Of a stretch of DNA of 64,000 nt, positions 8,509 to 57,365 are shown piece by piece. Positions within the stretch are counted from its first letter, which is position 1. Each line of letters opens with the position of its first letter. The DNA is taken from the NCBI GenBank assembly GCA_016699875.1, contig CP064989.1:648788-712787 (forward strand), in the 5' to 3' direction. The stretch comes from Candidatus Moraniibacteriota bacterium. GTDB taxonomy: Bacteria > Patescibacteriota > Minisyncoccia > Moranbacterales > UBA1568. A program made the translations under genes and the position numbers. The notes beneath the pieces are model-generated. The model was not told the origin of the DNA. It did not search any database and saw nothing but the letters and a program-made list of their open reading frames with translations.

Positions 8509-9155
8509 GTGCATTTCGTAACCATTCGGATATACCATATCCTTATGGTAAAACGACAAGCAAACATTTTTAGTTGTGCAACCAATTTTGAGAGAGGGAG
8601 AAAGAGTGTTCCCTGTGGTTCTTTCAAACTGTCGAGAACTTGGAGAGGCTATGTGAAATGCGGACAGTGTTTGAGGCAGAAAAGCCTGCAGCGCTTGAAA
8701 TGGGAGATTGCGATCCTGAGAGGATTCTATTTGCAACAACCCGCGCACTGCCTGGCACATGACCTGGACGTGGAGTATCAGGGTATCACGCGCACCTATC
8801 AATGACTTCGAGAGATGCTCTATCATGTCGCTGAACTGGAAGGAGGTAGGCTGTCCGGGGAGATTGAAATGGACGAATCGTATTTCGGGGGCAGACGGAA
8901 GGGAAAACGAGGAAGATGCGCCAAGGTGAGAGTATCGTTTTCGGCCTCTTGGAGTGCGATGGACGAGTCTATACGAGGGTGGTGGAGCATGTGAGTGCCG
9001 AAGAGCTGATGGAAATCATCCGAAAGAGAACCAGAAAGGGATCAGTCTACTACACGGACACCTTCAATCGCTATAATTCCTTTACAATCACTCACCGGAA
9101 CAAGAATCTTTTCAAACCGTTTATTCGCGTCTATTTTGGTTATGTTTCGCACTAA
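8509..9155 (+). pseudogene. degraded IS1595/ISXO2-like transposase (split across two frames)
   Basis: One frame reads EMDESYFGGRRKGKRGR, the other VFGLLECDGRVYTRVVEHVSAEELMEIIRKRTRKGSVYYTDTFNRYNS. Together these form the ISXO2-like DDE domain. A zinc-ribbon-like N-terminus precedes them (VPCGS...YVKCGQC). Confidence 0.6.
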
Positions 9156-10633
9156 TTACCTTCTTTTGGGATCTTTTTTGAAGTTTTTAAATTGGCTATC
9201 TCATGGTACTCTGCATCGGAGTTGACGTTCCATTGGTCGTAATTTCCCTCACCGAGAATATTCTTTACGGCAAGGAAAGCGGTCATCATGGAATGATCTG
9301 AGTTGTTGTATTTATGAAGACCTCCTCTTCCAATCGGCTGGAGCGAATAGTCTTTAAATGTTGATAAGAGGCATCCCTTTATTTTCTCAACTTTTTCTTT
9401 GTACCCAAGCGTGTAGACAGGATATACGTTTTTCATCCGGATTACTTTTGCGTCAAACACGGATTTGGAATAGTCTCCGCAAAGTTTCTGTAAGTATGAC
9501 TTTGCTAAGTCAACCAAATCCTTATCGTTTGCTTTCCAAAGGGGGTCTCCCAGAGAACAGGTGAATTCGAATCCTACGCATGATGAATTCTTATTCGGAA
9601 CCATGAAGGGACTCCAATTGTGGAAGAATTGGACTCGAATGGATTGCATGCTCTCTTCGTGGGTGTATATCCACGTGTCTTGTAGCGGAATTCTTCCATC
9701 TATCATTAGGGAAACAGTGATGAAATCGCGAAAGGAAAGCTCATTTGCAGCGCAAAGAATATTCTGCGGCGGCGCAGGAGAAAGAGAGGTCACAAGTTCT
9801 TTGAGGGGCATGGTCGAAAGTACGAAGTCCGCAAGGAACTCTTTTCTCCCGGAAGGTGTTTGCGTAGAAATAGAAAGAATTTTTCCGTCTCGATGATGTA
9901 TTTGTGTGACAATGTGCTGTGTGAGTATATGTCCTCCGGAATTTTGAATTTTTTTTGCAACCGTTTCCCACATTTGTCCGGGACCATACTTTGGATATCT
10001 GAAGGTCTTGATAAGTGATTTTATGGAAGTATCTCCCGGTTTGAAGAGTTTCTTGAGCCGGTCTTTTAAGACGCTGAAAAAGGAAATCCCCCGTATTCTC
10101 TGGAAAGCGAAATCCTTGCTGAGTTTTGATGGGTGAATTCCCCAGAGTTTTCGGTTGTAATCGAGAAAGAATGGCTTTGCCAGGCGCGCTCCAAAGTTAT
10201 TGATACACCAATCGGCGAGCGTGTACCCCGGTCTTATTGGAAACAGTTTCGTTCGGATATAGCTCAAGAATATGTGAAGAGATTCCCTTACCCCAAAAGT
10301 TTTAAGAATGTCAATGAGTTGGATGGGATAATGAAAGAAATTTCCCCGGTAAAACCATCGGGAAAGGCGGGGACGATCAAGGAATTCATCTCCAAGCATT
10401 TTTTTCCACCACGCTTCTATGTCTTGGTTTTTGCTAAAGAAGCGATGTCCGCCAATATCAAAACGGAACCCATTGTGCCGGACGGTTCTCGAGATGCCAC
10501 CAATAACACGGTCCGATTCGAGGATAGTAACTTTGAATCCGCGCTGTGTGAGTTCGTATCCGGCAGTGAGTCCGGCCGGACCCGCACCTATAATAACTAC
10601 CTCTCTCTTTGGAGTCTCAGTTGATTTTTTCAT
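9152..10633 (-). CDS. FAD/NAD(P)-binding oxidoreductase (amine-oxidase / UDP-galactopyranose-mutase-like fold)
   Basis: N-terminal Rossmann [17 protein letters not shown]...[10 protein letters not shown]. 493 aa. Confidence 0.65.
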
Positions 10634-10641
10634 CCGTGTTT

Positions 10642-12939
10642 TTATGGGGAGTTTCGGTAGGTGTATACGGCAATATCTCCACTTCGGAATATTTCGGTAA
10701 GATATTTTTCTCTGAAATCGAGGTAGTTTTCTATGCTTTCCCGGAAGAGGGCGGAAGTCTTTGGAGAAGTATCCTTTGCGTACCTGGCAGAATCAAGCCA
10801 TTGTCTTAGGTCGCCTTCTTTGAAGATAAAATATGAAACTTCGAGAGACTTTAACTTTTCTGCGAGTAGAGCGCCTTGGTTTTTATTTTGAAGAAAGTGG
10901 AACAAGTGCAAACAATAATCATATGTCACGATTGACTCTGGATTTTTTACATAGTAGTTGAGTGACGGGCCAATGGAATCCCATATAATGCCATTGGAGT
11001 TGTTTTTATTGAGGAAATCGGCTGTACTGTACAGGTTGTATTTCCCGGAATCTTCCCTTACAAAGAGAGTTCCATTTCTGAAAACATTATCAAAACGAAC
11101 GACGGCAACCGCAAGAGAAAGAGCTATGATGGAAAAAAACAGTGGAATTTTTATGACGTCAAACTGCTTTCTTGAGAGAATATCTCCGAAATAGAGGAGG
11201 GTAAGCAATAGCATTGACATGGCGTACCATGAATTGAGATTGCTTGATATTGCCCAGGAGATTCCCTGAAGAATGATAATGGTGCCGAGAATTTTTCTGA
11301 ACGGTTTTGTTGAAATGTCATCTTTCTTTGTTGAACAGAAAAAGAGTATAGGGAGAAAGAGAAGGAATAGAGGACCGATGTTTGTGATATCATTCTGATT
11401 TTTCTTGTCGTAATCAAATGTGAAACGAAATGGGGATTCAAGGAGAAATAACCAGCCTTTGTTTTCTTGATTTTCCGTGAAGATATAAGAATCGGAAGTT
11501 TGCTCCTGCAGGTGTTTCGAATAACTCCTTCCGATTTGCTTGAAGAAGGTGTCGTTGCGGGAGAGCAGGTTGCCGAGCGCAGGTTCGACAGGGTTGCCGG
11601 AGAAGATGATGTTTTTCACTGCCCATGGCGAAAAACAGATGGCGATAACAGTAAGGAGGAGCGTGATGTGGACGAGTCTTCTCTTCAAGCTGAATTTTCT
11701 TGGGAAGAGCAGAAGAACAGCGAGAAAACTTGGAAGAATTATGGAGAAGAAATTGTATTTTGTGCCACTTGCTATTCCGGCAAGAATAGCGAAGAGGAGA
11801 AAGGTTTTTCGTTCCGGTGTTTGGAAGAACTTCAGGAGATAGAGTGTGGCGAGAAGCGTGTAGCACCAAAAGGCGAGGTCAATCTTGTGATCGACAGTGA
11901 TCATGAGGTACGGAATCGCAGAGAGCATATATAAGAGGACAATAACGGGAGAACTCGCCTTTGGAAAAACAAACCGTTTGATAAGAATGAGAATTCCGGG
12001 GAGAAGAAAGTAGAAAACGGTGTTGAGTCCTGCGGCGGGAGTGAAGCCCCTCAGGAGGTGTGCGAGCGTGAAGAGCATCTCGGTATTTTGTGGGAATCCG
12101 CTTGCGAACCAATACTTGAAATTGACAATTTTGTGTGCTTCCGCGTAGGCGTGCGGGAAGGCTTGATACGTATGCATTTCGTCCCAGCCGGCAGCGAATT
12201 GGGAGAGGAGTCCGGTTGTTGCGAAAACGAAGAGAAAGAAGGATGCAATGATTGCGAAGTTGTCTAGGGTAAAAAATGGCTTGATATTCCACGAAATCGA
12301 TGTTCTCCTAATATCGGAGAAGAGCGTCAACCATTCTTTTCGGAAAGCAAGGAGTGTGCCCAAAACAAGCGCGTAGGCGAATGTCCCATAGAGAAATCCA
12401 AACATGCCGGCAATGTAAACAATGAGCATGAGTATGCCGAAACCAAGGAGTGTCGAGAGAATGAAGTGTTCGAGAAGTTCGGTTGTTTCAACATGAACTC
12501 GGCGGATGAGATGGCTTCCGATCGAAAAGCCGGCAAGCGTGATGAGAGTGACGAGGAAAATAGAGATGGTACTGTTTATCGAGATACCAATGTCGGGTTT
12601 GAGAAGGTAAATGAGAAGTATCCAACTCGCCGTACAGCCGTAGAAAACGATGATGAGGCTTTTGATGGGAACAAAGACCGTACTTGGCAGACGACGGATC
12701 CAGTGTATTGGCGGGAATTCTTTTCTGAGGAAGAGATAGGGGAGCGAGGCGAAGAAAAGAAGCGGTGCGAAAAATGCTGCAAGGAAAAGAAACAAAAGAA
12801 AAGCATCGAGATAGGATTGTCCGTAGGTTCGATAGAAATAGAAATACGCCGCCATGACACAGAGTGTCCAGAGCGCAAAGAAAAACAGCGGGATTTTTCG
12901 GAGAAAATATCTCATGAAGTGGAGTAGAAATTGCCTCAA
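10642..12939 (-). CDS. large polytopic membrane protein, probably a GT-C-type glycosyltransferase (ArnT/PMT/YfhO-like)
   Basis: 765 aa with more than 12 hydrophobic segments, an acidic loop motif (GWDEMHTY) and a long soluble C-terminal domain. The family assignment is inference. Confidence 0.55.
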
Positions 12940-13039
12940 TGATAGCGCGAAAGTATATTTTTGTTGAGTTGTCTGTCTTGCAGCAAGATGGTAGGATTTT
13001 ACCGGTTGAGACCCCTTCAGCCTAAATTATGGAGTTGCT

Positions 13040-14583: not shown

Positions 14584-14787
14584 ATGCTTTCAAAAACAAA
14601 TTAGCATCCCCCATAGGGTGTGAATCGTTTTCCTTTTTTACCATGCGATTTGTTTTTTGGCAAGGGGAAGGCTTTTGTGATAGTGTAAAGACACTTTTGG
14701 ATGCATTATGATTGCTTTACTGGAAGGAAATGTTGTTGCTCTGCGTCATGATTCTGCGGTGGTGCAGACGGGGGGTGTGGGTTATAA
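14334..14787. repeat. direct repeat copy A (about 455 bp). Second copy at 20103..20557
   Basis: Near-identical sequence covering most of rpsT, its upstream region and the first 27 codons of ruvA. Confidence 0.9.
14708..14787 (+). pseudogene. ruvA 5' fragment (first 27 codons). Orphan copy inside repeat A
   Basis: ATGATTGCTTTACTGGAAGG... identical to the start of ruvA at 20476. Diverges after GGTTATAAGG. Confidence 0.6.
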
Positions 14788-31935: not shown

Positions 31936-31940
31936 CATTG

Positions 31941-32997
31941 TTAGGACTTACGCGTTTGCCAAACAATACCGTGTAGCCATTCTTGAAATCATCGCCTTCT
32001 GTTCGTACCAACTGATACCGCTTTTCAATCTTTGTCGCTCCAGTTTTACGAAAGCGACAAAGGCGGAGAAGATATGAGTTCTTTGAGAAACGGCTTTTAT
32101 GGATTCGCACTGTTCAATACCGGTGGTTTGCTTCACGCCTCGATGGAACTCCTCAATCTTCCACCGATGATTGAAATGATTCGTAAAGTCTGCATACTCG
32201 GTAAGAGTAAGATCGTCTGTTGCCAGAAAGGTGCGGTCGCCGTTCTTGTCGATCAACGCACACACAAGGATGGAACCAAAACCCCTCAACCAGACCTGTC
32301 TTACCTGTTTATCGGCAAGCTCCAGATCTTGGATGGCGAGCGTGGTACCATAACTCGGGCTTACTTGACGATTGGATTTGAGCATAGTGATGAAGTGCCA
32401 CTCTTTGTCTCTGACGTGCTTCAGGTTATCAAGGCCGGAATACCAAGAGTCAGTGAGAATATATCTTGGTGAAAACCCTCTTTTTTTGGCGACATCGAGC
32501 ATATTTTTGAAGTGATCATTCTTGGTGAGACCATCGTCTTCCCTGCGATAGACACGATAGTCAACCGGCACGTATTCCTCGCCACTCGTCCAAAGAAAGT
32601 TTACCAAACATATGCCATCTATGAGTCCGTGTTCATTGCCGGAATACTGTTTTTTGACAAGCTCGTTCTTTCGGGAGTGCCGCTTGTCGAGAATGGAATC
32701 ATCGCAGATTAGGTAGCCAGTTTCTTTTTTTACCAGGTATCGGGTATGTTGCCAGAGCTGAAGAGGGCTGTACGATTTTGAGAGTCTCCATCGATCAATG
32801 GCATCGTGGGCTATTGAAGTATGCGGCAATGATTTTGACATCTCAACGCTTGAACAACGATTCTGATTGGCAATGAGGAAACGAGTGTACAATCCGAAAG
32901 AACATTTTTGTTTTTGCATGAACGATGAGAAAAGGATTGCGACCAATGGGTCCGATATCATTTTCTCATGGATTCAGGCAAACGCGTAAGTCCTAAT
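31941..32997 (-). mobile_element. IS element (IS4/IS701-like), 1057 bp, perfect 20-bp terminal IRs
   Basis: IRL 31941..31960 TTAGGACTTACGCGTTTGCC is the exact reverse complement of IRR 32978..32997. Single DDE transposase ORF inside. Inserted 5 bp after the xseB stop. Confidence 0.8.
31948..32961 (-). CDS. DDE transposase (IS4/IS701-like)
   Basis: 337 aa. Candidate catalytic residues in YLICDDS, YILTDSWYSG and WKIEEFHRGVKQ. Confidence 0.75.
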   Translation of the reverse strand: MISDPLVAILFSSFMQKQKCSFGLYTRFLIANQNRCSSVEMSKSLPHTSIAHDAIDRWRLSKSYSPLQLWQHTRYLVKKETGYLICDDSILDKRHSRKNELVKKQYSGNEHGLIDGICLVNFLWTSGEEYVPVDYRVYRREDDGLTKNDHFKNMLDVAKKRGFSPRYILTDSWYSGLDNLKHVRDKEWHFITMLKSNRQVSPSYGTTLAIQDLELADKQVRQVWLRGFGSILVCALIDKNGDRTFLATDDLTLTEYADFTNHFNHRWKIEEFHRGVKQTTGIEQCESIKAVSQRTHIFSAFVAFVKLERQRLKSGISWYEQKAMISRMATRYCLANA

Positions 32998-47572: not shown

Positions 47573-47647
47573 TCCGGCGTAGCTCAGCGGTAGAGCGAGG
47601 GACTGTTAATCCCCAGGTCGCAGGTTCGAATCCTGCCGCCGGAGCAA
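47573..47647 (+). tRNA. tRNA-Asn (anticodon GTT)
   Basis: Acceptor TCCGGCG/CGCCGGA, D-arm GCTCAGCGGTAGAGC, anticodon loop CTGTTAA, T-arm GCAGGTTCGAATCCTGC. No encoded CCA. Confidence 0.85.
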
Positions 47648-47652
47648 ATGAA

Positions 47653-47681
47653 AATAAGGCTTAAACACGCCTTATTTTTTG
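47653..47681 (+). terminator. terminator hairpin after the tRNA (ATAAGGCttaaacacGCCTTATTTTTT)
   Basis: Stem followed by T6. Confidence 0.55.
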
Positions 47682-47757
47682 TTACCCCGGACTGGAGTTC
47701 GAACCAATTTGTTTAAGATGCTATGATTTATTTATTATTTGCAAAGGAAATTAAATC

Positions 47758-48468
47758 ATGGAAGATAAAATTCTAAAATTAAATAATACAAGAATTTATG
47801 TTGTGAGAAGTATTCATCCATACACAAGAACCGTTACGGATGAAGAGCTTGCAAAGAAAGGTATTGGAATTGGAAATGATTGGGATAGCGATACTGATCA
47901 TGCGGCATATCAATGGAAAATGGTAGATCATTATGGATCGGGTATGGGCGTTATGTCCCGTGAATATAATATGCCTGTTGGAAAATGGTCCGTATATTTA
48001 GCTAAAGACTTGGAGCATGCAAAAAATAAATTTCTCAAGGAAAAGAAAAAAGAAGGCGATGTATTGTATATTGCTGAAATCGATTTAATTAAAGTTAAAC
48101 TTGGAAAAAATCTGCCGTTTGAATATATGGAGAAAGATGAAAATGGAAAATTGAAATATGCAGAAACTGCTTTAGAAATAGATAGTGATAATGAAGCTGG
48201 AGAGTATCACTTGGTATCCCAAAGGAGCTTAGAAACATTACAGGCAGGTCTCAAATGTGGATTTGATTCGACTGGAAGACTAAAAGATGATGGAAATCTT
48301 TTTGGCGAATTCTATTTGGATAATTATAAAGATCCCTCTCAAATTGAAAAAGAATATATTTTTAGAGTCAAAGAGGGGGAACATGTAGAAATAACCTCAG
48401 AAATAAAACGTCTAAGAGGGGAGATGGAATCTCAAAAAGAAAGGCTATCTAGTTTTAAGTTGAGATAA
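47758..48468 (+). CDS. hypothetical protein (first cassette of the low-GC island)
   Basis: 236 aa, K/E-rich and AT-rich coding. No recognised domain. Confidence 0.5.
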   Translation: MEDKILKLNNTRIYVVRSIHPYTRTVTDEELAKKGIGIGNDWDSDTDHAAYQWKMVDHYGSGMGVMSREYNMPVGKWSVYLAKDLEHAKNKFLKEKKKEGDVLYIAEIDLIKVKLGKNLPFEYMEKDENGKLKYAETALEIDSDNEAGEYHLVSQRSLETLQAGLKCGFDSTGRLKDDGNLFGEFYLDNYKDPSQIEKEYIFRVKEGEHVEITSEIKRLRGEMESQKERLSSFKLR

Positions 48469-48470
48469 TA

Positions 48471-48503
48471 AGGTTCTGGCATCATCCAATCTGGGTCTCA
48501 TGA
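48471..48503 (+). repeat. island 3' box, copy 1 (AGGTTCTGGCATCATCCAATCTGGG)
   Basis: Member of a repeat family sharing GGTTCKRAC-NTCNTCCA...CGGAGC. Confidence 0.6.
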
Positions 48504-48513
48504 ATTAATGAAA

Positions 48514-48578
48514 GAAGTTCGAACTTCCTCCAAGGCTCGGAGCTAGCTAATTTGAGGCTTTGTTAAGCCTCTTTTTTG
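48514..48578 (+). repeat. island 3' box, copy 2, plus hairpin terminator
   Basis: GAAGTTCGAACTTCCTCCAAGGCTCGGAGC...TTTGAGGCTTTGTTAAGCCTCTTTTTT. Confidence 0.7.
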
Positions 48579-48602
48579 ATACAAGGGGTTCTAACCTGGT
48601 AT
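48567..48602 (+). promoter_or_regulatory. sigma70-like promoter (TTGATA-18-TATACT) for the SDR cassette
   Basis: Spacing and hexamers close to consensus. ATG at 48615. Confidence 0.4.
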
Positions 48603-48614
48603 ACTAAAAGTACT

Positions 48615-49373
48615 ATGGAAAATTCTAAATCACTACAATCTAAAGTTGCTCTCGTTACTGGTGTTGGCAGAAAGGAGGGGATTGGTATGGCTATCTGTCG
48701 TGAACTTGCCAAAAATGGGGCAGATATTTTCTTCACCTACTGGCATCCCTACGATCAGGAAACTCATCCTGATAGTGAAAACAATATGCAAGCTCTTAGT
48801 ACTGATTTAGAGCAACTTGGTGTAAAAGTGAAGAGCAGGGAAGTAGACTTGTCTCAACCTGACTCTGCAGAGAGGCTCTTTGAGGAAGTAGAAAAAAAGT
48901 TAGGCACTCCTTCTGTTCTCGTAAATAATGCTTGCCATGACTTTGAAGTTGACTTCACGGAACTTTCACCAGAGATATTGGACTAGCATTATGTAGTGAA
49001 TGTCAGAGCTGTTACGATGCTCTGTAAAGAGTTTGTGAAAAGAGGAAAGACTGGACATATCATCAATATGACATCAGGCCAGTCTCTCGGTAGTATGGGA
49101 GGTCATAAAATTCCTTATACTATTACGAAGGCAGCTTTAGAGATGCTAGCACCGCAACTCGCTCCTGAATTGAAAAATCTCGGAATCTCTATAAATTCGC
49201 TCGATCCAGGGCCAACTGACACTGGTTGGATGACAGAAGAAGTAAAAGAGATGATTTTGAAGGATTCTAAAAAAGGATTTATAACTACCCCAGAAGAAAT
49301 CGGAAAGCTGGTCGTAAAGATTCTTACTCAAAATCAGTATAAAAGTGGAGAAGTAATTCACGCTGAACGTTAG
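48615..49373 (+). pseudogene. short-chain dehydrogenase/reductase interrupted by an in-frame TAG at 48984..48986
   Basis: N-terminal ALVTGVGRKEGIGMA (TGxxxGxG), NNAC, then after the stop S-x12-YxxxK (MTSGQS...YTITKAAL) in the same frame. Confidence 0.6.
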
Positions 49374-49384
49374 AAATCAAGGGC

Positions 49385-49950
49385 ATGGCTAAAATTTCAT
49401 TAGAAAAATTACTTTCTGAAAAAGAAGCAAAAGTTGGGGATACGATCTTTATTGCAGTTGATGGTCATGGTGGTTCTGGAAAATCAACATTTGCAAAATG
49501 GCTTTCAGAAGAGTTAGATGCACAAATTATTCAGACAGATGATTTTGCCTCCTGGGATAACCCGCTAAACTGGTGGCCACTTGTCATTGAGAAAGTATTT
49601 GATCCCATAAAAAAAGGAGCTAGGACTTTAAGTTATCCTCGATCATCGTGGTGGGAGAATCATCATCCAGAGCCAGTTATTGACCAGCCAGTAACAAAAA
49701 TTATGATTCTTGAGGGAGTGAGCTCTTTGAGAAAGGAATTTCGTAATTACATCAGCCTAGGTTTTTTTGTAGATACACCTTTGTTTGCAAAGAGGAGTAG
49801 AGAGAGATTCTGGCACTGGGAAAACAGCGCAGGAGCTCGAGGAAATGTGGAATAAGTGGTTTGCTGAGGAAGAAGTGTATATGAAGAGGGATAACCCTAA
49901 GAACTATGCTGATGTTGTTCTCGAGGGGTCAAAGTCATTTGTAGACCAGG
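49385..49950 (+). pseudogene. P-loop nucleoside/nucleotide kinase-like protein with a frameshift near 49815 (A-run)
   Basis: IAVDGHGGSGKSTFAKWL P-loop. The C-terminal AQELEEMWNKWFAEEEVYMKRDNPKNYADVVLEGS continues in another frame. Confidence 0.5.
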
Positions 49951-49963
49951 TTGATTAACCAAA

Positions 49964-50030
49964 CGGGTTCTAACATCATCCAGTACCCGGAGCTTACTTC
50001 AGAAAATGGCTTAGTATAGCCATTTTTTGT
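49964..50030 (+). repeat. island 3' box, copy 3, plus terminator
   Basis: CGGGTTCTAACATCATCCAGTACCCGGAGC...AATGGCTtagtatAGCCATTTTTTG. Confidence 0.7.
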
Positions 50031-50154
50031 TGCCTGGGAGTATTGACTCAAAGATGAAATTATGCTAAGATATATTATTCATTGACCTTCCTAAATAGAC
50101 GCGACAAACATCACGCGTTGTGGTGAGTCGAACCTGTTTAGGAGGATAAACGCA

Positions 50155-50361
50155 ATGGCGGAATATTGTAATTTGTCTCGAACGGACAGAGACAAGTTTC
50201 TCCAGTTTGCCAGAAATGGACGCTGGGGGACATGCGACGACTGCCCAAGAGATACGGATGGCCGAGTGTATCCCGAGTTCTGTCCCAATACGGACCGTTA
50301 TGACCATCGGATGACAATGGAGGAGTTGGCCGACTACTACAAGGTCCTTATAAAGGGATAG
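50155..50361 (+). CDS. small cysteine-containing hypothetical protein
   Basis: 68 aa. RBS AGGAGGATAAACGCA. CxxC-like (CDDCP...CP). Confidence 0.4.
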   Translation: MAEYCNLSRTDRDKFLQFARNGRWGTCDDCPRDTDGRVYPEFCPNTDRYDHRMTMEELADYYKVLIKG

Positions 50362-50466
50362 TCTGACCCAGAAGTAAGCAGAAGACTGCTGTTCTGGGTC
50401 TTTTGCTTTTCTATACCACCACCCACTCCAATTCTTTTAAGTCTTTCTGAATATTTCCCCAATCAA

Positions 50467-50530
50467 AAGTTCTAAGTTCATCCACTAGAGGGAGCCATTT
50501 AAAAAAGAGGCTTAGATTAGCCTCTTTTTT
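50467..50530 (+). repeat. island 3' box, copy 4, plus terminator
   Basis: AAAGTTCTAAGTTCATCCACTAGAGGGAGCC..AAGAGGCTTAGATTAGCCTCTTTTTT. Shares an extended roughly 110-bp unit with copy 5. Confidence 0.7.
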
Positions 50531-50695
50531 GTTTTTTCTGAATGCATACTAAAACATATTGACATAAATTTTAACATGTGCTATTTTAAAACGTTGTTTT
50601 GAGGTCTATTTATTTGGCTTATGGCACAATAAATACTTCAACAACAGATGATAAATTTGTTTTTTTGTTTTACAACACTACGTTGGAGGTCTACC

Positions 50696-50989
50696 ATGTC
50701 AAACGGAAGAACCTACGCTGTTCCGGCAGAGGATATCAAAAAGTATGTGGATCAGGCAATAGCGCAGCTTGGCCTCGATCCGGTGTTCGTGGATGACATG
50801 GACAGTGCCATGTATGCGCATCACCTTGTGTACCATTCCGAAAATGCAAGTGTTGCGAGGGAAGTATTTAATATGCCAGAGGCTTCCATTAGCGAACTAG
50901 CTCGGAAAATGGCTGATGCTGACGGGGAAACTATTACGAAAATTGAGAAAGATGAAAGGTATCAGTTGCCCCCCCCCTCATACAGGTGA
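50696..50989 (+). CDS. hypothetical protein
   Basis: 97 aa. RBS GGAGGTCTACC before the ATG. A TTGACA-17-TATTTT promoter lies upstream (about 50560). Confidence 0.4.
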   Translation: MSNGRTYAVPAEDIKKYVDQAIAQLGLDPVFVDDMDSAMYAHHLVYHSENASVAREVFNMPEASISELARKMADADGETITKIEKDERYQLPPPSYR

Positions 50990-51102
50990 GCGATGATCAA
51001 TAACTGATTACCCACCGCAGGAATCTGCCTCGGTGGGTTCTTGCTTTTTATGTCAAAGTCCATTCCAATTTCCGAAACACTTTCATAATTTCTCCCAAAT
51101 CC

Positions 51103-51175
51103 AGAGTTCTAAGTTTGTCCACCAGGCGGAGCAGCGCTAAATAGAGGCTTTAAAAAAGCTTTAATTTTTGTTTTT
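51103..51175 (+). repeat. island 3' box, copy 5
   Basis: AGAGTTCTAAGTTTGTCCACCAGGCGGAGC...ATAGAGGCTTTAAAAAAGCTTTAATTTTTG. Confidence 0.7.
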
Positions 51176-51314
51176 GTGGAGGGCTTTCTGGTTTGTTGGG
51201 AGAAACAAAAAATGATTTTGATTTACAGCTTAGCTATATTTACTTGCATAGAATATAACTAAGATGTACTATAGTTAGTATCGGGTAGATAAAATGTAAC
51301 TAAATTGCAAAGGT

Positions 51315-52484
51315 ATGATTTTAGGGAAATTTATTCGACAAAATACCGGTAGTATAGGCGAATATAAGGCATTTATACCAGACAAGTTCCCTCCAAAGGG
51401 CGGATTTTCGTTTTCTCCGGACATAGTGAAACAAGATGCAAAAGCCCAACATTTAGTAAGTAAGCTTGATGGAATTACTCAATTGCTTCCCGATGTCGAC
51501 TTTTTCATTTTCATGTATATCTTGAAAGATGCGACGTCATCAAGCCAGATTGAAGGTACGGGTGCTACCATGATTCATGCCCTGGAAGCGGAGGCTAAGA
51601 TTGATGTTGACCTTCCTGATGATGTCGACGATATCGTTCACTATATCAATGCACTTAACAAGGGCATGGAAATGCTTGGTAAACTTCCAATAAGTAGCAG
51701 ACTTGTGAAATCGATTCATAAGGAGCTGATGCAAGGAGCGCGATCGACCCATGATGCCGTTCCTGGTGAGTTTCGTCATGATCAGAATTGGATCAATGGT
51801 ACGAAACCTCAGGATGCGAAATTTGTTCCGCCGCCGGTACACGAAATGCAGCGAGCGCTCGACGATTGGGAAAAATTCGTACATAAAGATGATAATCTAC
51901 TTCCGCTTACCAAGGCCGCTATGTTGCATGGACAGTTCGAGACCATTCATCCATTTCGAGACGGTAATGGAAGAACTGGTCGCATGATAACCACGCTTTA
52001 CCTTCATGAAGCTGGTCTTCTCGAAAAACCAACACTGTTTCTCTCGTCGTATTTTAAGAGATATCAAAAGACATACTATGCTCGACTTGAAGGGTATCAC
52101 TCGGGTGAGGTTGAGGAATGGGTGCGATTCTTTTTGACTGGTGTAGCGGAAACGGCACAGGAAGCAATTGAAACTGTACATCGAATTACGAAGCTGCGCG
52201 AACGAGATATTTTGAAGATACAAGGTTTGGACAAAAGATCCTCGCAGAGCGCTATAGTTGTACTCCCGCAACTCTTTGCCTTGCCAATTATCGATATTGT
52301 GACAGTGAGCAGATGGACCGGTTTTAGTCAGAACGGGGCGCAAAAGCTGGTTGATCGATTCGTTGATCTCGGCATTTTGCATATTCGCGATGAGAATCGG
52401 AAATATCGACGGTCGTATATTTACAAAGATTATGTTGATATTTTTTATGACGCTCGAAGAGAAAAAAATGAAGCAATTGAATAG
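51315..52484 (+). CDS. Fic-family protein (AMPylase/ADP-ribosyltransferase-like), copy 1
   Basis: HPFRDGNGRTGR Fic motif. C-terminal wHTH-like region. 389 aa. Confidence 0.85.
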   Translation: MILGKFIRQNTGSIGEYKAFIPDKFPPKGGFSFSPDIVKQDAKAQHLVSKLDGITQLLPDVDFFIFMYILKDATSSSQIEGTGATMIHALEAEAKIDVDLPDDVDDIVHYINALNKGMEMLGKLPISSRLVKSIHKELMQGARSTHDAVPGEFRHDQNWINGTKPQDAKFVPPPVHEMQRALDDWEKFVHKDDNLLPLTKAAMLHGQFETIHPFRDGNGRTGRMITTLYLHEAGLLEKPTLFLSSYFKRYQKTYYARLEGYHSGEVEEWVRFFLTGVAETAQEAIETVHRITKLRERDILKIQGLDKRSSQSAIVVLPQLFALPIIDIVTVSRWTGFSQNGAQKLVDRFVDLGILHIRDENRKYRRSYIYKDYVDIFYDARREKNEAIE

Positions 52485-52519
52485 GTTTCGGAGTTTTTTG
52501 CTATGAACGAATTATTATT

Positions 52520-53178
52520 AGAACCTGTTTACAATCTTCCGGTACACTGAGGACATAATCCTCAAACCAAAAGAACCATGTATCCAAGCGACATAACCCG
52601 AGAACAATTCGAACACATCAGACCATTTCTCGAATCAACCAGGAAGAGAACCAAACCAAAGACACTTGATTCCTATGACGTATTCAACGCTCTGCTCTAC
52701 ATTCTGGTCACGGGTTGCCAATGGAGGGCACTTCCCAAGGATTATCCAAAATGGCAGAGTGTCTATCGACACTTCCTTGTCTGGAAGGAACGAAAAAACA
52801 AACAGACAGAGAGTATGCTTGAGCAAGTCTTAAAAAAAATTGGTCGAACAAGAACGTATGAAAAATGGCAAACAATGCAAAACCAGTTTCTGCATCGTTG
52901 ATGCTCAAAGTGTCAAGAATACAGATACGGCTCGAGAAAAAGGTTATGATGCAGGAAAAAAAGTTTCCGGTATCAAGCGACATATTCTCGTTGACACCAA
53001 CGGATTGCCGCATGCGTTCACGGTAACCACTGCTAACGTCACTGATCGAAAGAGAAGTTTCTCCTGGCTGGAGAAATGCCGAAGGCTCTGGAAGAATTGC
53101 GAACGGACACTGGATTCGAGCTTACAGATGATGGTTTTAAGTTTTGATCGATTGTTGTTGAAAAGATTGTAAACAGGT
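52520..53178 (+). mobile_element. internally deleted IS5-family element (IS427-like) with intact 18-bp terminal IRs
   Basis: IRL AGAACCTGTTTACAATCT (52520..52537) is the reverse complement of IRR (53160..53178). Only about 660 bp long. Confidence 0.7.
52578..53172 (+). pseudogene. IS5-family transposase remnant (orfA-like plus frameshifted, truncated orfB-like)
   Basis: FNALLYILVTGCQWRALP (DUF4096-like), then IVDAQSVKNTDTAREKGYDAGKKVSGIKRHILVDTNGLPHAFTVTTANVTD in the -1 frame, then a further frameshift and premature end. Confidence 0.65.
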
Positions 53179-53216
53179 TCTAAGACGTCTTAAGTAAGCC
53201 TAATTATTTATAAGAC

Positions 53217-53282
53217 AGGTTCTGACATCGTCCAGTGCTCGGAGCAGATGAAATAGAGGCTCATACAAGCCTCTGTTTTTAT
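53217..53282 (+). repeat. island 3' box, copy 6, plus terminator
   Basis: CAGGTTCTGACATCGTCCAGTGCTCGGAGC..ATAGAGGCTCATACAAGCCTCTGTTTTT. Confidence 0.7.
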
Positions 53283-53359
53283 GCTCTTACCAAGCAGATT
53301 CAGTCGTATCAATAAAAAACAGTGAATATTGTGATACTTATGCATTTTGTTAACTGTAA

Positions 53360-53388
53360 ATTGACAGAATATAGTGAATAGAATATAA
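53360..53388 (+). promoter_or_regulatory. consensus sigma70 promoter (TTGACA-17-TATAAT) for Fic copy 2
   Basis: Perfect -35 and -10 hexamers with 17-bp spacing, 27 bp upstream of the ATG at 53415. Confidence 0.55.
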
Positions 53389-53414
53389 TAAACACATAAT
53401 ATTCACTAAAAAAT

Positions 53415-54305
53415 ATGGCCATTACTAAACCAATTCGGAATCGTATTCAAAAATTAAAGAAAGAATTTGACGCTTTAAGAAAGGGAAAGGAGTCGCTTCT
53501 GACTCTTATTGATGAAGCTGAAATTCCGGAGAGTGTCTACAACTCTAATGCTATTGAGAATTCAACGCTGACGCTCCAGGAGACCGAAAAAATACTCCTT
53601 GATATTGCCGTATCGCGAGATGTATCTGTGCGGGAAGTCTTTGAAGCGAAGAATCTCGCTCGTGTTATCAACTATATCCGTACAAAGTCCCAGGAAAAAG
53701 AAATTGATAGGGATGTAATTTTACTCTTGCATCAGATGCTCATTGGAGGCATTAAAGATGAGATTGCGGGGCGTTTCCGAAATAAAGGAGAGTATGTTCG
53801 AGTGGGAACATATATCGCTCCGGCTCCGGAGCATATCAATCTGATGCTTGACTCGATCCTTTCCGAATACGGAAGCGATCATGATTCATATTTTCTTGAT
53901 AAAATAGCGAAGTTCCATCTACATTTCGAAAATGTTCATCCATTTTGCGATGGTAATGGTCGGATTGGCCGGGCTCTTGTCTGTTATCAACTGCTTCGAT
54001 TGGGATTTCCTTTGGTCATCGTTCGAAATAAAGAGAAAGAAATTTATTATAAAGCATTTTCAGATTATCGTGATCAAAAGAATTCGAAAACTATGGAAAA
54101 AATGTTTTCCCTGGCTCTTACAGAATCATTGCATAAGCGTATCACCTACCTGAAAGGAGAGAACGTTATTACTCTTTCCGAATATGCTAAGAAACATGGC
54201 GAATCGTCACCCGCCCTCTCGAATGCAGCTCGTCGACAGAATATTCCGGCTTTCCGAGAGAAGGGAGTTTGGAAGATCGGTGAGAAATTCAAAAAAGACC
54301 GGTAG
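53415..54305 (+). CDS. Fic-family protein, copy 2 (shorter, divergent)
   Basis: HPFCDGNGRIGR Fic motif. 296 aa. Confidence 0.85.
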   Translation: MAITKPIRNRIQKLKKEFDALRKGKESLLTLIDEAEIPESVYNSNAIENSTLTLQETEKILLDIAVSRDVSVREVFEAKNLARVINYIRTKSQEKEIDRDVILLLHQMLIGGIKDEIAGRFRNKGEYVRVGTYIAPAPEHINLMLDSILSEYGSDHDSYFLDKIAKFHLHFENVHPFCDGNGRIGRALVCYQLLRLGFPLVIVRNKEKEIYYKAFSDYRDQKNSKTMEKMFSLALTESLHKRITYLKGENVITLSEYAKKHGESSPALSNAARRQNIPAFREKGVWKIGEKFKKDR

Positions 54306-54327
54306 AGGATTTACTTGTTTTCTCAAG

Positions 54328-54392
54328 TAGGCTCGAACTTCTTTGAGAGCTCGGAGCTAGTAAAAGCAAGGCTTAATAGAGCTTTGTTTTTG
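54328..54392 (+). repeat. island 3' box, copy 7
   Basis: TAGGCTCGAACTTCTTTGAGAGCTCGGAGC...hairpin...GTTTTTG. Confidence 0.65.
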
Positions 54393-54518
54393 TTACCGAA
54401 GGAGGATTTAAACGGTCTGGACAGAAGCAACAAAGTATGCTATTATTAGAGGTCAGTTGAAATGACTGACCATTGTTGGGATGTTTCCGCAATGTCTTCC
54501 TGAAAGAGGATTGCAATC

Positions 54519-54962
54519 ATGTCACTTAAAAAATATACCCTCCCGAATCTACTCACATCGTTGTATGAAAGTGCAACAAAAGCGCTTCATGTAATTTGGT
54601 CAGACCGATTTGTAGTCATTCATGGGACTATTGTAAACCGTGAAGGGTCAAATTGGATTGTCAACCTGACCGTGCAGGTGCACTTCAAAACACCGCATTA
54701 TCACGGATGGACATTCCTTGAAGTTTCTGTGCATGTGAGTGAGTCTTTAAGGCATGCGACTGACAACGGACCCATCCTTGTCGAGGTGAAAAATCCTAAA
54801 ATGGATCCTCCTAAAATCATGATTGCCAGAGTTCTCGTCTGGAAGGACTGCTACAACCCAGACAATCCTCTGGACGCCTGGGGTCGGATGTATGTACGCG
54901 ACGACGACAAAAAAGACTTGGAGGTCATAGAGTACCTTGTATTGGAGGGAATTGTCGACTGA
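54519..54962 (+). CDS. hypothetical protein
   Basis: 147 aa. No motif. Confidence 0.4.
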   Translation: MSLKKYTLPNLLTSLYESATKALHVIWSDRFVVIHGTIVNREGSNWIVNLTVQVHFKTPHYHGWTFLEVSVHVSESLRHATDNGPILVEVKNPKMDPPKIMIARVLVWKDCYNPDNPLDAWGRMYVRDDDKKDLEVIEYLVLEGIVD

Positions 54963-55059
54963 TTCTCCCTGAGAAGAAGCTCCCAAAGGATAACTATCCG
55001 GCGGGAGCTTTTCAATTTCAAATGCTCAGCATGTAGATTTGAACTCGGTGCTTGATCCC

Positions 55060-55128
55060 CTTAATACATGGGTTCGTACTTCGTCCAACATGTGGAGCTA
55101 GTTTGGATGGTTTGTCCCCAAGGCAGAT
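55060..55128 (+). repeat. island 3' box, copy 8
   Basis: GGGTTCGTACTTCGTCCAACATGTGGAGC...GATTTTTTG. Confidence 0.6.
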
Positions 55129-55322
55129 TTTTTGTTTATATTAATCTTTGTTTTTATCCTGTAGATAAATGATTTCTGTACTCGGGAGAGCTTTTCTTCT
55201 TTAAGACTTGGTTCGAGAGGATACAAAATTAAGAAATTGCTGCTCTTGCTCGATATTTTCCTCTAGGAAGGTGGTCTTTGCTTAGCTGGCAGTTTTGACT
55301 AGGGATACCCGGGTAAACTATA

Positions 55323-55351
55323 TTGACAATTTATACTTCATGTCGTATAGT
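55323..55351 (+). promoter_or_regulatory. consensus-like promoter (TTGACA-17-TATAGT)
   Basis: Upstream of the 393-aa ORF. Confidence 0.45.
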
Positions 55352-55417
55352 GAGTTGTCAGTCTGGAAATCCAGGTATGACAAAACCCGATAGTAACTTA
55401 ACAGAGGACTAGACAGA

Positions 55418-56599
55418 ATGAGTAACAGCACCATTTTCTTTGAAGAAGCTCTGCGCGAAGTTGGTGTGAGCGATGTGGCGATTGCTGCCTTGATCGATAA
55501 CGAATACACTGATGTCAGCCAGTTGACTAACCTTGATGTCAATGACTTTTTGGCACTAGGCATCAAGGGTCGTCCAGCCTCGCTTTTGGCAGAAAAGTTC
55601 GGTAGACGTTCTGGCGGTCAATCAGTAGATTTGGATCAATCTACTTCGAAGCAGCCCATCAAGGTCGAGGTATCGTTGCCGAAATCGTTCGATCAAATGG
55701 GAACTTCCGAACTTCTCTCACAGCTCGCTGATACCAGTAACGCAGATGCGTTGTCGACATTGCTAGGTAAGCCGGAAGTGATTGCTGCTTCGGCTAGGAC
55801 GGATTCATGGGCTATTCCTGGCACTGGTGGAACGAAGCTGGATGTCGACGCGACAATGGCGTACATTCGCTATCTCGGTAAGCCAGGGGCAACTCCCCAA
55901 CGCCTGTATCAGGGACGTCGTCCCAAGAGCATCCATGTCATCCTTGGCGTTGTCGAGAAGACCCTGGTTAACCCATTTACGGGCGAGCCGGTGGTTGAGG
56001 GTTTGGATGCATCCGGAAATGACTGGTCGAAGACTGATCGTATCCTCATGAAAGCGATTTTGTGGGCGCGATTCACTCGACATAGGTTCTTCCCAGCCGC
56101 CATCGATCCATTCTCAGCCTTTGAGGAAATTTCTCAGCAGCCGCTGCCGCGGCGTTGGCAAGGTATTTTGGATGATTACAACGCGGCGGTCGAGGATGAA
56201 GATCCCGCGGCCTTGGGTGTGAGCTTGGCGTGGAAGGCTCCTACTGCTACCAATACCAACGGTAAGGGTGATACGATTGGCGGTGTCGCTGCTGAACAGC
56301 GGACTCGTGGCGCAGCGCTTGACCCGGAGTCTTTTGTCCGGGCGAAGTGTCAGGGTGCTGGTACTTTGTCCGGTATGGATTCAAAACTTGTTGGTGTCTT
56401 TTCGACTGTTGCTGTTTCTGGAATGAATCAGTCAGTCTGTGTTATAGTGCTGGATTCTTTTAAAGTAAGTGGTATGAATCAATCCGGCGTTGTTTACCTT
56501 GCTCCAGGTGCTGTCACAAAAGGATCGGGTATGGGAAACACCATCAGCATAGAACGGAAGAGTTGGGAACAGTTGGCTCAGATAGCCAGGGAATGGTAA
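55418..56599 (+). CDS. hypothetical protein (higher GC than its neighbours, two SGMNQS repeats near the C-terminus)
   Basis: 393 aa. No recognised domain. Confidence 0.45.
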   Translation: MSNSTIFFEEALREVGVSDVAIAALIDNEYTDVSQLTNLDVNDFLALGIKGRPASLLAEKFGRRSGGQSVDLDQSTSKQPIKVEVSLPKSFDQMGTSELLSQLADTSNADALSTLLGKPEVIAASARTDSWAIPGTGGTKLDVDATMAYIRYLGKPGATPQRLYQGRRPKSIHVILGVVEKTLVNPFTGEPVVEGLDASGNDWSKTDRILMKAILWARFTRHRFFPAAIDPFSAFEEISQQPLPRRWQGILDDYNAAVEDEDPAALGVSLAWKAPTATNTNGKGDTIGGVAAEQRTRGAALDPESFVRAKCQGAGTLSGMDSKLVGVFSTVAVSGMNQSVCVIVLDSFKVSGMNQSGVVYLAPGAVTKGSGMGNTISIERKSWEQLAQIAREW

Positions 56600-56674
56600 T
56601 AGTCCGTTAGCATCCTTCTAAAAGGAGCTTTATCAGGCGGTAGACTAGCATGTCTGCCGCTTTATTTTTTTAAA

Positions 56675-56705
56675 GAGGTTCGAACTTCTTCCATCGCTTG
56701 GGCAT
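56675..56705 (+). repeat. island 3' box, copy 9
   Basis: GAGGTTCGAACTTCTTCCATCGCTTGGGC. Confidence 0.55.
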
Positions 56706-56778
56706 TAAACGAGTGCCACGAGATTTTGAGTCTGTAACAGAGTATCTTCTGGATCAGGAAATATCCTCCCCCACTCAA

Positions 56779-56838
56779 ACGTTCGAAGGCTGTCCATCCA
56801 AGAGCAGATCAAATAGAGACTTGTATGATTCCCTATTT
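56779..56838 (+). repeat. island 3' box, copy 10 (degenerate)
   Basis: AACGTTCGAAGGCTGTCCATCCAAGAGCAGATCAAATAGAGACTTGTATGATTCCCTATTTTG. Confidence 0.45.
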
Positions 56839-56933: not shown

Positions 56934-57365
56934 ATGAAAAAAATACCCTCAACGCTCGAACGTGTTCTTGCTGAAGTTGAGCTGGGAAATGTGCAGACGG
57001 AACAAGCTTTAGTCGATTTCAATCCAAACGGCATACCAATTAATTATCTTTTGTACTTCTGTGAACTGCCCGATGGGACAGTTGTATATTTTGGTCGCGA
57101 GAGTATATTCAAAGATCGTAGATTAATTCTTCGAGAGGATTTCCTTGCTGTTGGCAAGAATAAACAGCGCGTCAAAGATGGTCTCAAGTACCCGACGCTT
57201 CGATCCCCAACGTTCCTTAAGGAAGGGTTTGATGATGTTGAGATGATCGAACCACTTGCTTATGAAGTGCTGCCTAGAGAACAGCATGCGGATGCTCTTG
57301 AATACAACAAGGTGTTGCAGCAGACTCTCGAGAGACTTTATCGAGCTCTCACATTGAATGACTGA
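56934..57365 (+). CDS. hypothetical protein
   Basis: 143 aa. RBS AAAGGAGCGGGTGTA before the ATG. Confidence 0.4.
   Translation: MKKIPSTLERVLAEVELGNVQTEQALVDFNPNGIPINYLLYFCELPDGTVVYFGRESIFKDRRLILREDFLAVGKNKQRVKDGLKYPTLRSPTFLKEGFDDVEMIEPLAYEVLPREQHADALEYNKVLQQTLERLYRALTLND

Follow-up and report, generated by a model that had tools for sequence, protein, structure and literature searches.

The stretch of 64,000 nucleotides (nt) of Candidatus Moraniibacteriota bacterium contig CP064989.1 (positions 648,788 to 712,787), called the window below, was analysed for the array of gene cassettes lying behind its tRNA-Asn(GTT) gene. All positions given are those of the window. The host is a member of the Patescibacteria, or candidate phyla radiation (CPR), and its genome of about 1.09 Mb is a metagenome-assembled genome (MAG) in a single contig. 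The guanine-cytosine (GC) content of the backbone is about 0.49-0.53 and falls to 0.37-0.42 from 47.7 to about 55 kb. The fall starts right behind tRNA-Asn(GTT), the sole tRNA gene of the window (47573-47645, plus strand; ARAGORN, with an Rfam score of 71.8 bits), upstream of which the housekeeping genes SufBC, Rrf2, RpoD and HypC are located. At least eight short gene cassettes make up the region from 47.6 to 57 kb, an array that extends over about 9-10 kb directly downstream of this tRNA gene, its anchor. The original prediction, made from the sequence alone, had described the region as island cargo, and the low-GC island beginning at tRNA-Asn supports horizontal acquisition. Ten proteins of the window are identical to the NCBI entries QQS15405-QQS15415, all from one contig of 1,088,644 bp. 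The genome scan with RpoD gave for the most part distant bacteria, and in L001, its closest match (73% identity), tRNA-Asn is not downstream.

The cassettes are separated by a junction unit of about 65 nt, composed of a 28-nt arm with the consensus GGTTC[GT]AAC..TCCA.....CGGAGC and a hairpin with a T-run. Nine copies were found between 48.47 and 56.70 kb, all sharing one orientation and each standing immediately behind a gene or gene pair. A sigma-70-type promoter follows each junction unit, the one ahead of the gene Fic2 matching the consensus at 12 of 12 positions, and terminator matches were obtained at each junction as well. A cassette is delimited by two successive crossover points, each lying at GGAGC or just behind it, and encloses a terminator-like hairpin, an own promoter, one or two genes and the 28-nt arm. 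Cassette sizes vary from 0.5 to 2 kb, and the open reading frames (ORFs) of 236, 68, 97, 147, 393 and 143 amino acids (aa) are all intact. The core motif GTTCKAAC matches the window 13 times where 4.7 matches are expected, mostly between 47.6 and 56.7 kb.

All the cassettes are read on the plus strand. Cassette 1 (47646-48543; GC 0.33) carries a hairpin with T-run, a promoter and the 236-aa ORF (47758-48468), which has no match in Pfam, NCBIfam or PADLOC; the repeat search placed its arm scars at 48472-48499 (partial) and 48516-48543. The partial scar is an extra, truncated copy without hairpin directly before the full unit at 48516, and may be the leftover of a deleted or emptied cassette. 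Cassette 2 (48544-49993) appears dead, with pseudogenes of a short-chain dehydrogenase/reductase (SDR; 48616-49373) and of a kinase (49385-49958), and its arm is at 49966-49993. Cassette 3 (49994-50495) has a hairpin, a promoter (50043-50071), the 68-aa ORF (50155-50361) and an arm at 50468-50495. Cassette 4 (50496-51132) consists of a hairpin (50500-50531), a promoter (50559-50587), the 97-aa ORF (50696-50989) and an arm scar of the LPLVDELRTFDW tail type (51105-51132). Cassette 5 (51133-53245) contains the gene Fic1 (51315-52484), a derivative of an insertion sequence (IS) of the IS5 family inserted in the 3' spacer, and an arm at 53218-53245. In cassette 6 (53246-54357) a hairpin (53255-53274) and a promoter (53361-53389) precede Fic2 (53415-54305), and the arm is at 54330-54357. 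Cassette 7 (54358-55098) has a hairpin, a promoter (54418-54446), the 147-aa ORF (54519-54962) and an arm at 55071-55098, and cassette 8 (55099-56806) has a promoter (55323-55351), the 393-aa ORF (55418-56599) and two weaker scars, at 56677-56704 and at 56776-56806, the latter of the LAWQDSFRT tail type. The segment 56807-57450 with the 143-aa ORF (56934-57365) is a possible last cassette or the chromosomal flank, and no arm scar was found after this ORF.

The origin of the junction units was analysed by profile comparison. A profile of seven downstream repeats matched the tRNA 3' end and its terminator (47622-47683) with E=1.4e-6, and because this repeat-only profile finds the segment, the units appear to be homologous to the tRNA-gene end. 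The 3' end of tRNA-Asn (GGTTCGAATCCTGCCGCCGGAGC) would act as the B arm of an attachment site. A metagenome scan with the 3' half of tRNA-Asn yielded 17 contigs with an identical tRNA-Asn. In L105 and L112 tRNA-Asn is immediately followed, on the opposite strand, by a gene for a large serine recombinase (LSR) with the domains Resolvase, Recombinase and Zn_ribbon_recom; L106 has the same post-tRNA sequence as L112, again with an LSR gene on the opposite strand, and L113 and L117 bear C-terminal LSR fragments of 143 and 251 aa beside tRNA-Asn. The four LSR copies at tRNA-Asn show 29-37% mutual identity, yet all of them end in ..LRRQDSNLRPGD*, a tail encoded antisense to the T-arm and anticodon stem of the tRNA. 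As a further observation, L104, L109, L116 and L114 carry, about 10 nt after the intact tRNA-Asn, a displaced partial 3' end of a different tRNA-Asn allele (GGTCGTAGGTTCGATCCCTACCCGGGGAG), a footprint classically left when an integration exchanges the end of a tRNA gene.

The antisense frame is open in all nine repeats of the window and reads L-R-x-L-[DE]-[DE]-V-R-T, with Arg encoded by CGA or AGA. Its sum-of-pairs score was 808 compared to 404 +/- 145 for column-permuted controls, a value reached by 3 of 2000, and the antisense entropy of the repeats is lowest at codon position 2. Three repeats then read x-[FL]-[IV]-N-x (SFINS and CLINN, each with an immediate stop, and RLVNQ, which reads on), and two further ones continue as FDWGNIQKDLKELEW.. 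and LDLGEIMKVFRKLEW.. to a stop. Searching with a profile of the four LSRs gave 2705 members of the family, whose named sources are Parcubacteria, Moranbacteria, Pacebacteria and one Elusimicrobia record. Native tails of this family resemble the window peptides: P0209 ends in ..LLRELDDVRTYYLTNL, P0211 in LRGLDDVRT, P0160 in LHLLEEVRT, and the native tail LPLVNKFRTANWAGIKAELQ of P0163 compares with the window peptide LPLVDELRTFDWGNIQKDLKELEW. Many native tails are of the LAWQDSFRTFDW.. type, to which the scar at 56776-56806 also belongs. The 120 listed members P0121-P0240 comprise 36 with tRNA-antisense tails, 47 that stop at LLR and about 20 with native tails. The tRNA-antisense tails take the form ..[DG]SN[LPQR].., for example ..DSNLRPGD, ..DSNLQPID and ..DSNRRPSD.

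The spacing of the conserved motifs is in accordance with this comparison. From GGTTCKAA to GGAGC there are 22 nt in the tRNA gene and 27 nt in all nine repeats, an offset of 5 nt. In serine integrases the motif of the zinc-ribbon domain lies 5 bp nearer the centre in attB than in attP (PMC3783163), and the offset appears to fit this rule with the units as attP and the tRNA gene as attB. The antisense coding signature, the matching native tails and the 5-bp motif shift are the reasons why the arm and hairpin are read as the fossil of the last ~25 LSR codons, lying on the opposite strand. The family as a whole would be a CPR-wide group of LSRs whose attP lies inside the 3' end of their own gene and which insert at the 3' ends of tRNA genes. 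The C-terminal tail of such an LSR changes with the element being free or integrated, and the attachment sites and targets of these enzymes could be read from the protein tails alone (..DSNLRPGD against ..LDDVRT..), which would be useful for recombinase mining.

A reading of the repeats as terminator-like or repetitive extragenic palindromic intergenic elements, or as integron attC sites, with no relation to serine recombinases, draws on the hairpin and T-run of every unit, which are fit for an intrinsic terminator, and on a layout of cassettes that is superficially integron-like. It is extremely improbable, as GTTCKAAC is concentrated in the island, the units carry the antisense coding signature and share identity with native LSR C-termini, and the array has no IntI, no attC symmetry of R'', L'', L' and R' boxes, and cassettes with promoters of their own. 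Two other candidates were rejected. The motif GGTTCGAACC was considered as a genome-wide palindrome, but is concentrated in the island and encodes LGSN and FE[LP] of the LSR in relatives. A structured RNA or tRNA-like fold of the repeats showed no consistent pairing by eye, and Rfam finds only the true tRNA.

Several observations on the extent and spread of the unit stand beside these results. Junctions 0 and 1 contain, about 70 nt behind the first motif, a second one like GGTTC[GT]AACC (47690-47710 and 48583-48600), which overlaps the promoter of the next cassette (GGTTCTAACCTGGTATACT), and the same layout is present in L122 (GGTTTGAACCTGTGGTATAAT). The position of this second motif encodes the conserved ..FE[LP].. 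of intact LSR genes; the junction fossil may extend over about 100 nt, or the promoter may belong to the unit. Scanning of viral sequences with a loose repeat pattern matched only an unrelated conserved coding region of phages, and the Fic2 protein gave no match in the viral sequences. The strict arm pattern gave one viral match, in L134 (IMG/VR) at 14690-14730, with the antisense peptide LRELDDVRT; this arm is flanked by an AT-rich hairpin on one side and a GC-rich stretch on the other, and no Rfam family or LSR gene was found there.

The mobility of a cassette as a unit was examined on Fic2. Its cluster at 90% identity has 33 members on many contigs. L126-L133 are homologous to the window over 53242-54360 only, with about 94% identity. 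This segment is a single cassette with a crossover at either end; it starts just inside the left GGAGC and stops 3 nt beyond the right one. The 2-kb contig L118 shares the RpoD end, HypC and tRNA-Asn with the window at 90-93% identity, but carries the Fic2 cassette (window 53240-54289) directly behind tRNA-Asn, cassettes 1-5 being absent. At least five different left neighbours of the Fic2 cassette were thus counted across L126-L133, L118 and the window, with the break at the crossover: the Fic1/IS5 cassette with arm type LRALDDVRT in the window; DKNYY and a 140-aa gene with arm type LRLINNIRT in L126, L127 and L129; a DUF2268 gene with arm type LAW*DSFRT in L128, L130 and L132; a different upstream body in L133; and the tRNA itself in L118. 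On the right side the window has cassette 7 and L126-L133 have LigB, the break again lying at the crossover. In the L126 group the sequence ahead of LigB resembles what natively follows tRNA-Asn in L107 and L114. The right neighbour in L118 is also unlike that of the window, and there the homology stops a little earlier, at 54289. L126 and L128 are 100% identical in the Fic2 coding sequence, differ in their left neighbours and are about 97% identical to the right. A recombinase remnant is present in no copy of the segment from hairpin to promoter. The simplest reading of these comparisons is that a 1.1-kb recombinase-less Fic2 cassette entered several arrays by site-specific recombination. Homologous recombination was considered as the cause of the exchange and rejected, the sequences across the crossover being about 50-65% alike and the breaks site-exact.

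At 90% identity each of the other cassette proteins forms a cluster of its own, and no orthologues were found for Fic1 or the other cargo. Related arrays were seen elsewhere. In the independent CPR contig L122, four single-gene cassettes lacking an LSR lie beside two intact LSR elements; the cassettes have near-identical arms (GGTTCTAACATCGTCCAGT.C.CGGAG) as well as hairpins and promoters. L123 and L125 contain complete LSR elements in tandem, with primase-type genes and cargo of the restriction-modification type, and the LSR gene of L125 overlaps tRNA-Asn.

The same arrays can be explained by decay in place. The cassettes would then be trimmed remains of complete LSR elements, none of which had moved without its own recombinase; recombinase and replication modules would have been deleted in place, while selected cargo, promoter and attachment scar survived. 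LSR genes are indeed decaying in place beside tRNA-Asn in L113 and L117 (the fragments of 143 and 251 aa), the cargo of complete elements abuts the LSR stop of the neighbour on the opposite strand just as cassettes do, L122 mixes reduced cassettes with intact elements, and streamlining could explain why just the hairpin, doubling as terminator, and the arm were retained. The Fic2 comparison is difficult to accommodate: the stretch from hairpin to promoter and both crossover boundaries are the same in the window and in L126-L133 although the neighbours differ, and with L118, which has the same left boundary and the same hairpin-to-promoter stretch, an identical deletion would be required independently in each lineage. 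Moreover, all eight junctions of the window keep the same 65-100 nt, and intermediate fragments are missing. This explanation is rather unlikely for the array as a whole.

In the preferred reading, the cassettes form an array anchored at the tRNA gene, carry no recombinase and are bounded by fossils of LSR attP sites; this reading is given a probability of roughly two in three. The sequence comparisons show the anatomy of the array, the LSR origin of its repeats, the homology of exactly one cassette in different contexts, the lesions and the selection on Fic2, whereas mobilisation in trans, the order of insertion and a defence role of the Fic proteins are inferred. Each new unit would recombine at the tRNA-proximal end and push the older units outward. 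For Fic2 at least, the moving unit would be the cassette without a recombinase, served by an LSR encoded elsewhere, and the IS5 deletion derivative has landed in the Fic1 cassette. A more specific proposal is an integron-like gene capture by LSRs in the CPR, in which small circular promoter-gene cassettes with a minimal attP, which stems from the 3' end of the LSR gene itself, are captured singly at the tRNA 3' end by an LSR acting in trans; its premise is that CPR genomes, to our knowledge, are otherwise without classical mobile elements. We hold this proposal as tentative, a little short of even odds. If true, it would give these bacteria expressed and shuffleable arrays of accessory and defence genes.

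A number of points weigh against the preferred reading. No LSR or other recombinase gene was found in the 64-kb window by Pfam and LSR-family searches, so a trans-acting enzyme has to be assumed. Canonical serine integrases recombine attP with attB and accept neither attL nor a second attP as partner; for insertions to be repeated at an occupied tRNA gene, relaxed pairing or an accessory factor is needed. Repeated insertion does happen in the tandem arrays L122, L123 and L125, which do not reveal how. Mobility of the unit is suggested by one cassette, Fic2, in about five contexts. The crossover is placed to within about 10 nt after GGAGC, and the coding-signature statistic covers 27 nt in nine copies. 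The defence function of Fic1 and Fic2 is proposed from their family assignment. Decay in place stays viable for the cassettes other than Fic2.

The array was compared with known systems. With tycheposons, the tRNA-linked islands of Prochlorococcus, it shares the tRNA anchor, tRNA-like repeats between units, integrase-less remnants, older units lying outward, adaptive or defensive cargo and a streamlined host. Accretion of the tycheposon kind is seen in the tRNA-like repeats at every junction and in the position of Fic2, which stands at the tRNA in L118, while the window has five further cassettes there. Of 937 tycheposons, 910 use tyrosine recombinases (bioRxiv 10.1101/2020.12.28.424599). The units of the window differ in belonging to the LSR family and in being promoter-gene cassettes of 0.5-2 kb without a recombinase or replication gene, at least one of which appears to move as a recombinase-less unit. 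Their repeat is also not a plain partial tRNA but the 3' coding end of an LSR, 5 nt longer than the tRNA segment.

Integrons and clusters of attC sites lacking an integrase (CALINs) likewise have one-gene cassettes in one orientation, each ending in a recombination site, with identical cassettes in different arrays, site-exact breaks, a recombinase that may be distant and new cassettes that are proposed to enter at the anchor end. Unlike integrons, the array has no IntI, attI or attC hairpin symmetry, and its anchor is a tRNA gene. Its cassettes bring their own promoter and terminator and are not Pc-dependent, and its sites derive from the end of a serine recombinase gene and mimic a tRNA 3' end. 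A search for attC boxes (RYYYAAC ... GTTRRRY) in the window units found GGTTCKAAC at one end only and no GTTRRRY partner.

In the SCC and pseudo-SCC elements of staphylococci, CcrAB LSRs act at the 3' end of rlmH/orfX, tandem composites are formed, and units lacking ccr are presumed to be mobilised in trans. The use of LSRs, a housekeeping-gene 3' target that is left intact and direct repeats between tandem units are common to both systems. The window differs by its tRNA target, units of 0.5-2 kb as against 20-60 kb, an attP inside the LSR coding end and its CPR lineage. The literature search found no described CPR cassette system based on serine recombinases, which is weak evidence of novelty. 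Little is understood of how CPR bacteria, with their genomes of about 1 Mb, acquire accessory and defence genes, and a tRNA-anchored array of cassettes with LSR sites would be a compact route of gene gain, parallel to integrons and mechanistically independent of them.

The two Fic proteins of the array were analysed for family, selection and function. The earlier statement that both are intact was confirmed, each being a full ORF with the canonical core motif HxFx(D/E)GNGRxxR. Fic1 (51315-52484; core HPFRDGNGRTGR) matches Pfam PF02661 at 2.4e-22 and has Fic_N and Fic domains, and Fic2 (53415-54305; 296 aa, core HPFCDGNGRIGR) matches PF02661 at 1.6e-18 with Fic_N not matched. An N-terminal motif [ST]xxxE[GN] is located on the same chain, SSQIEG in Fic1 and SNAIEN in Fic2, and SSQIEG aligns with SSRIEN of a solved adenylyltransferase. 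An inhibitory motif in this N-terminal position of the same chain reportedly defines class II, and both proteins are predicted to be cis-inhibited class II Fic AMP-transferases. Against PADLOC, Fic1 matches the SoFic profile at 1e-107 over positions 5-358 of 361, and Fic2 matches SoFic partially (2.5e-27) and the candidate defence family PDC-S04 best (5.6e-35). Fic1 matches the PDB SoFic structures 3EQX and 3ZCN of Shewanella oneidensis (phmmer E ~1e-27 to 1e-29, at low identity). Fic1 resembles SoFic in its Fic_N and Fic domains, HPFxDGNGRxxR, SxxxEG and full-length profile match, and Fic2 resembles SoFic and PDC-S04 in the core motif and SNAIEN; they differ from SoFic in the low identity of Fic1, in the shorter Fic2 (296 aa) without Fic_N and in the episymbiotic CPR host. 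A defence function of both would be in accordance with these family assignments. Because Fic1 and Fic2 are only 25% identical over 186 aa, they were probably acquired separately and not by duplication.

Purifying selection on Fic2 is demonstrated: the ratio of nonsynonymous to synonymous rates (dN/dS) is 0.10 against the L118 orthologue (dS 0.33) and 0.07-0.08 against the L126 type, with an overall range of 0.07-0.13. The proposal that Fic genes are kept while neighbouring cargo erodes is upheld for Fic2 in its first part by this result, and fails in its second, erosion being confined to one two-gene cassette and the IS. Toxin-antitoxin modules of the FicT/FicA (VbhT/VbhA) type were rejected on account of the inhibitory motif in cis and the lack of an adjoining ORF of antitoxin size; the window ORF list has no small partner (plus strand, at least 40 aa) in the flanks of Fic1 or Fic2, and the VbhT profile match is negligible (E=0.003). 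An inhibitory motif on the same chain combined with an absence of mobile signatures in related genomes had been named as speaking against Fic genes as selected island cargo; the motif was found, and the mobile signatures are clearly present.

An ordinary decaying island, in which selection preserves Fic toxin or defence modules while the other cargo erodes, would agree with the damage to two genes and one IS, with the dN/dS of about 0.1 for Fic2 and with the SoFic and PDC-S04 defence profiles matched by Fic1 and Fic2. We regard it as quite improbable. Six or seven other cassette ORFs are intact, with damage limited to one cassette and the IS, the two cis-inhibited class II proteins without partner ORFs do not form toxin-antitoxin modules, and the junction repeats and the cassette structure are left out of account.

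The damage to cassette 2 was resolved by comparison with homologues. Translated in one frame, 48616-49373 gives a full-length classical SDR, matched by Pfam adh_short and NCBIfam PRK12859 over 5-251 and 76% identical to intact homologues of 250-253 aa. The motifs TGxxxGIG, NNAx and YxxxK are all present, and the sole defect is a TAG at 48984-48986, which interrupts the frame at the conserved Lys of ILDKHY. Lys occupies this position in 12 of 14 homologues, the remaining two having Glu and Arg, and the surrounding ILD-K-HY is invariant. Since Lys is carried by those 12, the lesion is most probably a single substitution of AAG to TAG, and the gene is to be considered a putative pseudogene of the classical SDR family. 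Alignments to PDB and metagenome homologues cross the codon without a gap, which bears out the earlier description of an SDR with one in-frame TAG and its catalytic motifs otherwise in one frame.

The second gene encodes a uridine-kinase-like P-loop kinase (PF00485/PRK06547), whose Walker A motif GHGGSGKST is present in a frame that is not intact; the truncated form is annotated at NCBI as the 156-aa product QQS15409.1. Homology runs in frame 1 up to ..FVDTP and in frame 2 from CLQRGVERD on, where 11 homologues, the closest up to 71% identical, read FVDTPKE[LIV]CLQRGVERD. Eight nucleotides are absent directly after cct (49775-49777) and before ttg, by which the K-E of FVDTPKELCLQRG is lost and the frame is shifted. 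The frameshift in the kinase had been predicted rightly, but its assignment to a slip in the A-run near 49815 is replaced by this 8-nt deletion near 49777, about 35 nt upstream of the run. A 1-nt or 2-nt event in a T-run had also been considered as the cause of the shift and was overturned by the close homologues. The inactivation of cassette 2 is recent, because each gene has one lesion and keeps every other conserved residue. If the SDR and the kinase work together, the loss of one would release the other from selection.

An alternative genetic code or recoding had been put forward for the in-frame TAG. TAG is an ordinary stop: of 28 backbone genes, 9 end in it, among them PolA, RuvA, SufC and a Mur ligase, and no in-frame TAG was found in other conserved genes within the 64-kb window; as far as this sample allows, an alternative code is excluded. 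Sequencing errors are unlikely, because the lesions are a substitution and an 8-nt deletion in one 1.4-kb cassette and about 50 kb of other coding sequence is clean. The explanation that both lesions are errors of assembly or sequencing, or programmed recoding, and that SDR and kinase are functional, can point to a source that is one MAG contig of 1.09 Mb from an assembly that we take to be long-read, and to the intactness of all other conserved residues, by which the lesions are very recent at most. It is nevertheless highly improbable: neither a base substitution nor an 8-nt deletion is a homopolymer indel, the two lie less than 0.8 kb apart in one cassette with all backbone genes unbroken, TAG is a used stop, and no slippery or stimulatory context exists at 49777. 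The pseudogenes of cassette 2 are real but ordinary, and the solid point of the locus is Fic2 as a widely shared and selectively maintained cassette. As to the origin of the pair, the closest intact SDR homologues (L081-L084) stand in a trio of a 67-aa helix-turn-helix regulator, the SDR and a GrpB-domain protein beside pilus genes, without an adjoining kinase, so the pairing seen in the window is not the usual context of this SDR.

The element in cassette 5 (52518-53183, plus strand) is a non-autonomous deletion derivative of the IS5 family with inverted repeats (IRs), orfA (DUF4096) and a remnant of orfB. The IRs are perfect over 21 nt (52518-52538 and 53163-53183; 100% complementarity), made up of an 18-nt IR with TTA/TAA. 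The copy measures 660 bp in comparison to 873 bp for an intact relative on the Moraxella osloensis plasmid NZ_CP068110. An in-frame deletion of 65 codons in orfB, including DGGY and VVER, has cost the DDE triad its second Asp and its Glu, and only the first Asp region (VDAQSV) is left. The frame changes between orfA and orfB at an A8 run (52834-52841), and because the intact relative shows the same frame change, the run is likely to be a native site of programmed -1 slippage and not a sign of decay. Of what had been predicted for this element, the perfect IRs (extended here from 18 to 21 nt) and the lost interior were recovered, and the decay by frameshift gives way to the native slippage site. 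Among the IS5-family elements with programmed -1 frameshifting (NCBIfam transpos_IS5_3), the window copy has IRs near-identical to those of the Moraxella copy (GAACCTGTT[TC]AC[AG]AT..) and shares with it the DUF4096 orfA, the slippage site at the A-run and both ends of orfB; it differs in its length of 660 bp and in the deletion of two of three catalytic residues. A second frame, MPKALEELRTDTGFE, that resembles the ADKGYD region was found to be a coincidence on alignment to the intact Moraxella copy.

The flanks of the remnant, TTA (52518-52520) and TAA (53181-53183), do not form a clean TNA duplication, and the Moraxella copy has TAA on both sides. The mismatch may come from a point change or from recombination between two copies. 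The 11-mer GAACCTGTTTA occurs in the 5' leader of cassette 3 (50130-50140) and at the IR tip of the IS (52521-52531), and the arm adjoining the IS (ACAGGTTCT, 53215-53223) also resembles the IS end; these likenesses may be coincidence or reflect a target preference of the IS.

Some minor features were observed elsewhere in the window. A lone exact arm motif at 6158-6185 (GTTCTAACTTCTTCCA; antisense ..YMEEVRTSS..) stands just upstream of the start of a DUF3048 gene, where GGAGC, hairpin and a nearby tRNA are all absent; it may be an old scar in another part of the genome, or chance. A second zone of lower GC (0.42-0.44) lies at 9000-13000; its minus strand encodes a PMT_2 glycosyltransferase and a flavoprotein resembling amine oxidases, and no repeats or tRNA were noted in it. 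A second DDE transposase (DDE_Tnp_1/DDE_5, 337 aa), which looks intact, lies at 31937-32961 on the minus strand. The end of this element, at 31937-31968, is 94% identical to positions 1-32 of the Fic2-bearing contig L126, and the organism of L126 may share this IS with the genome of the window.

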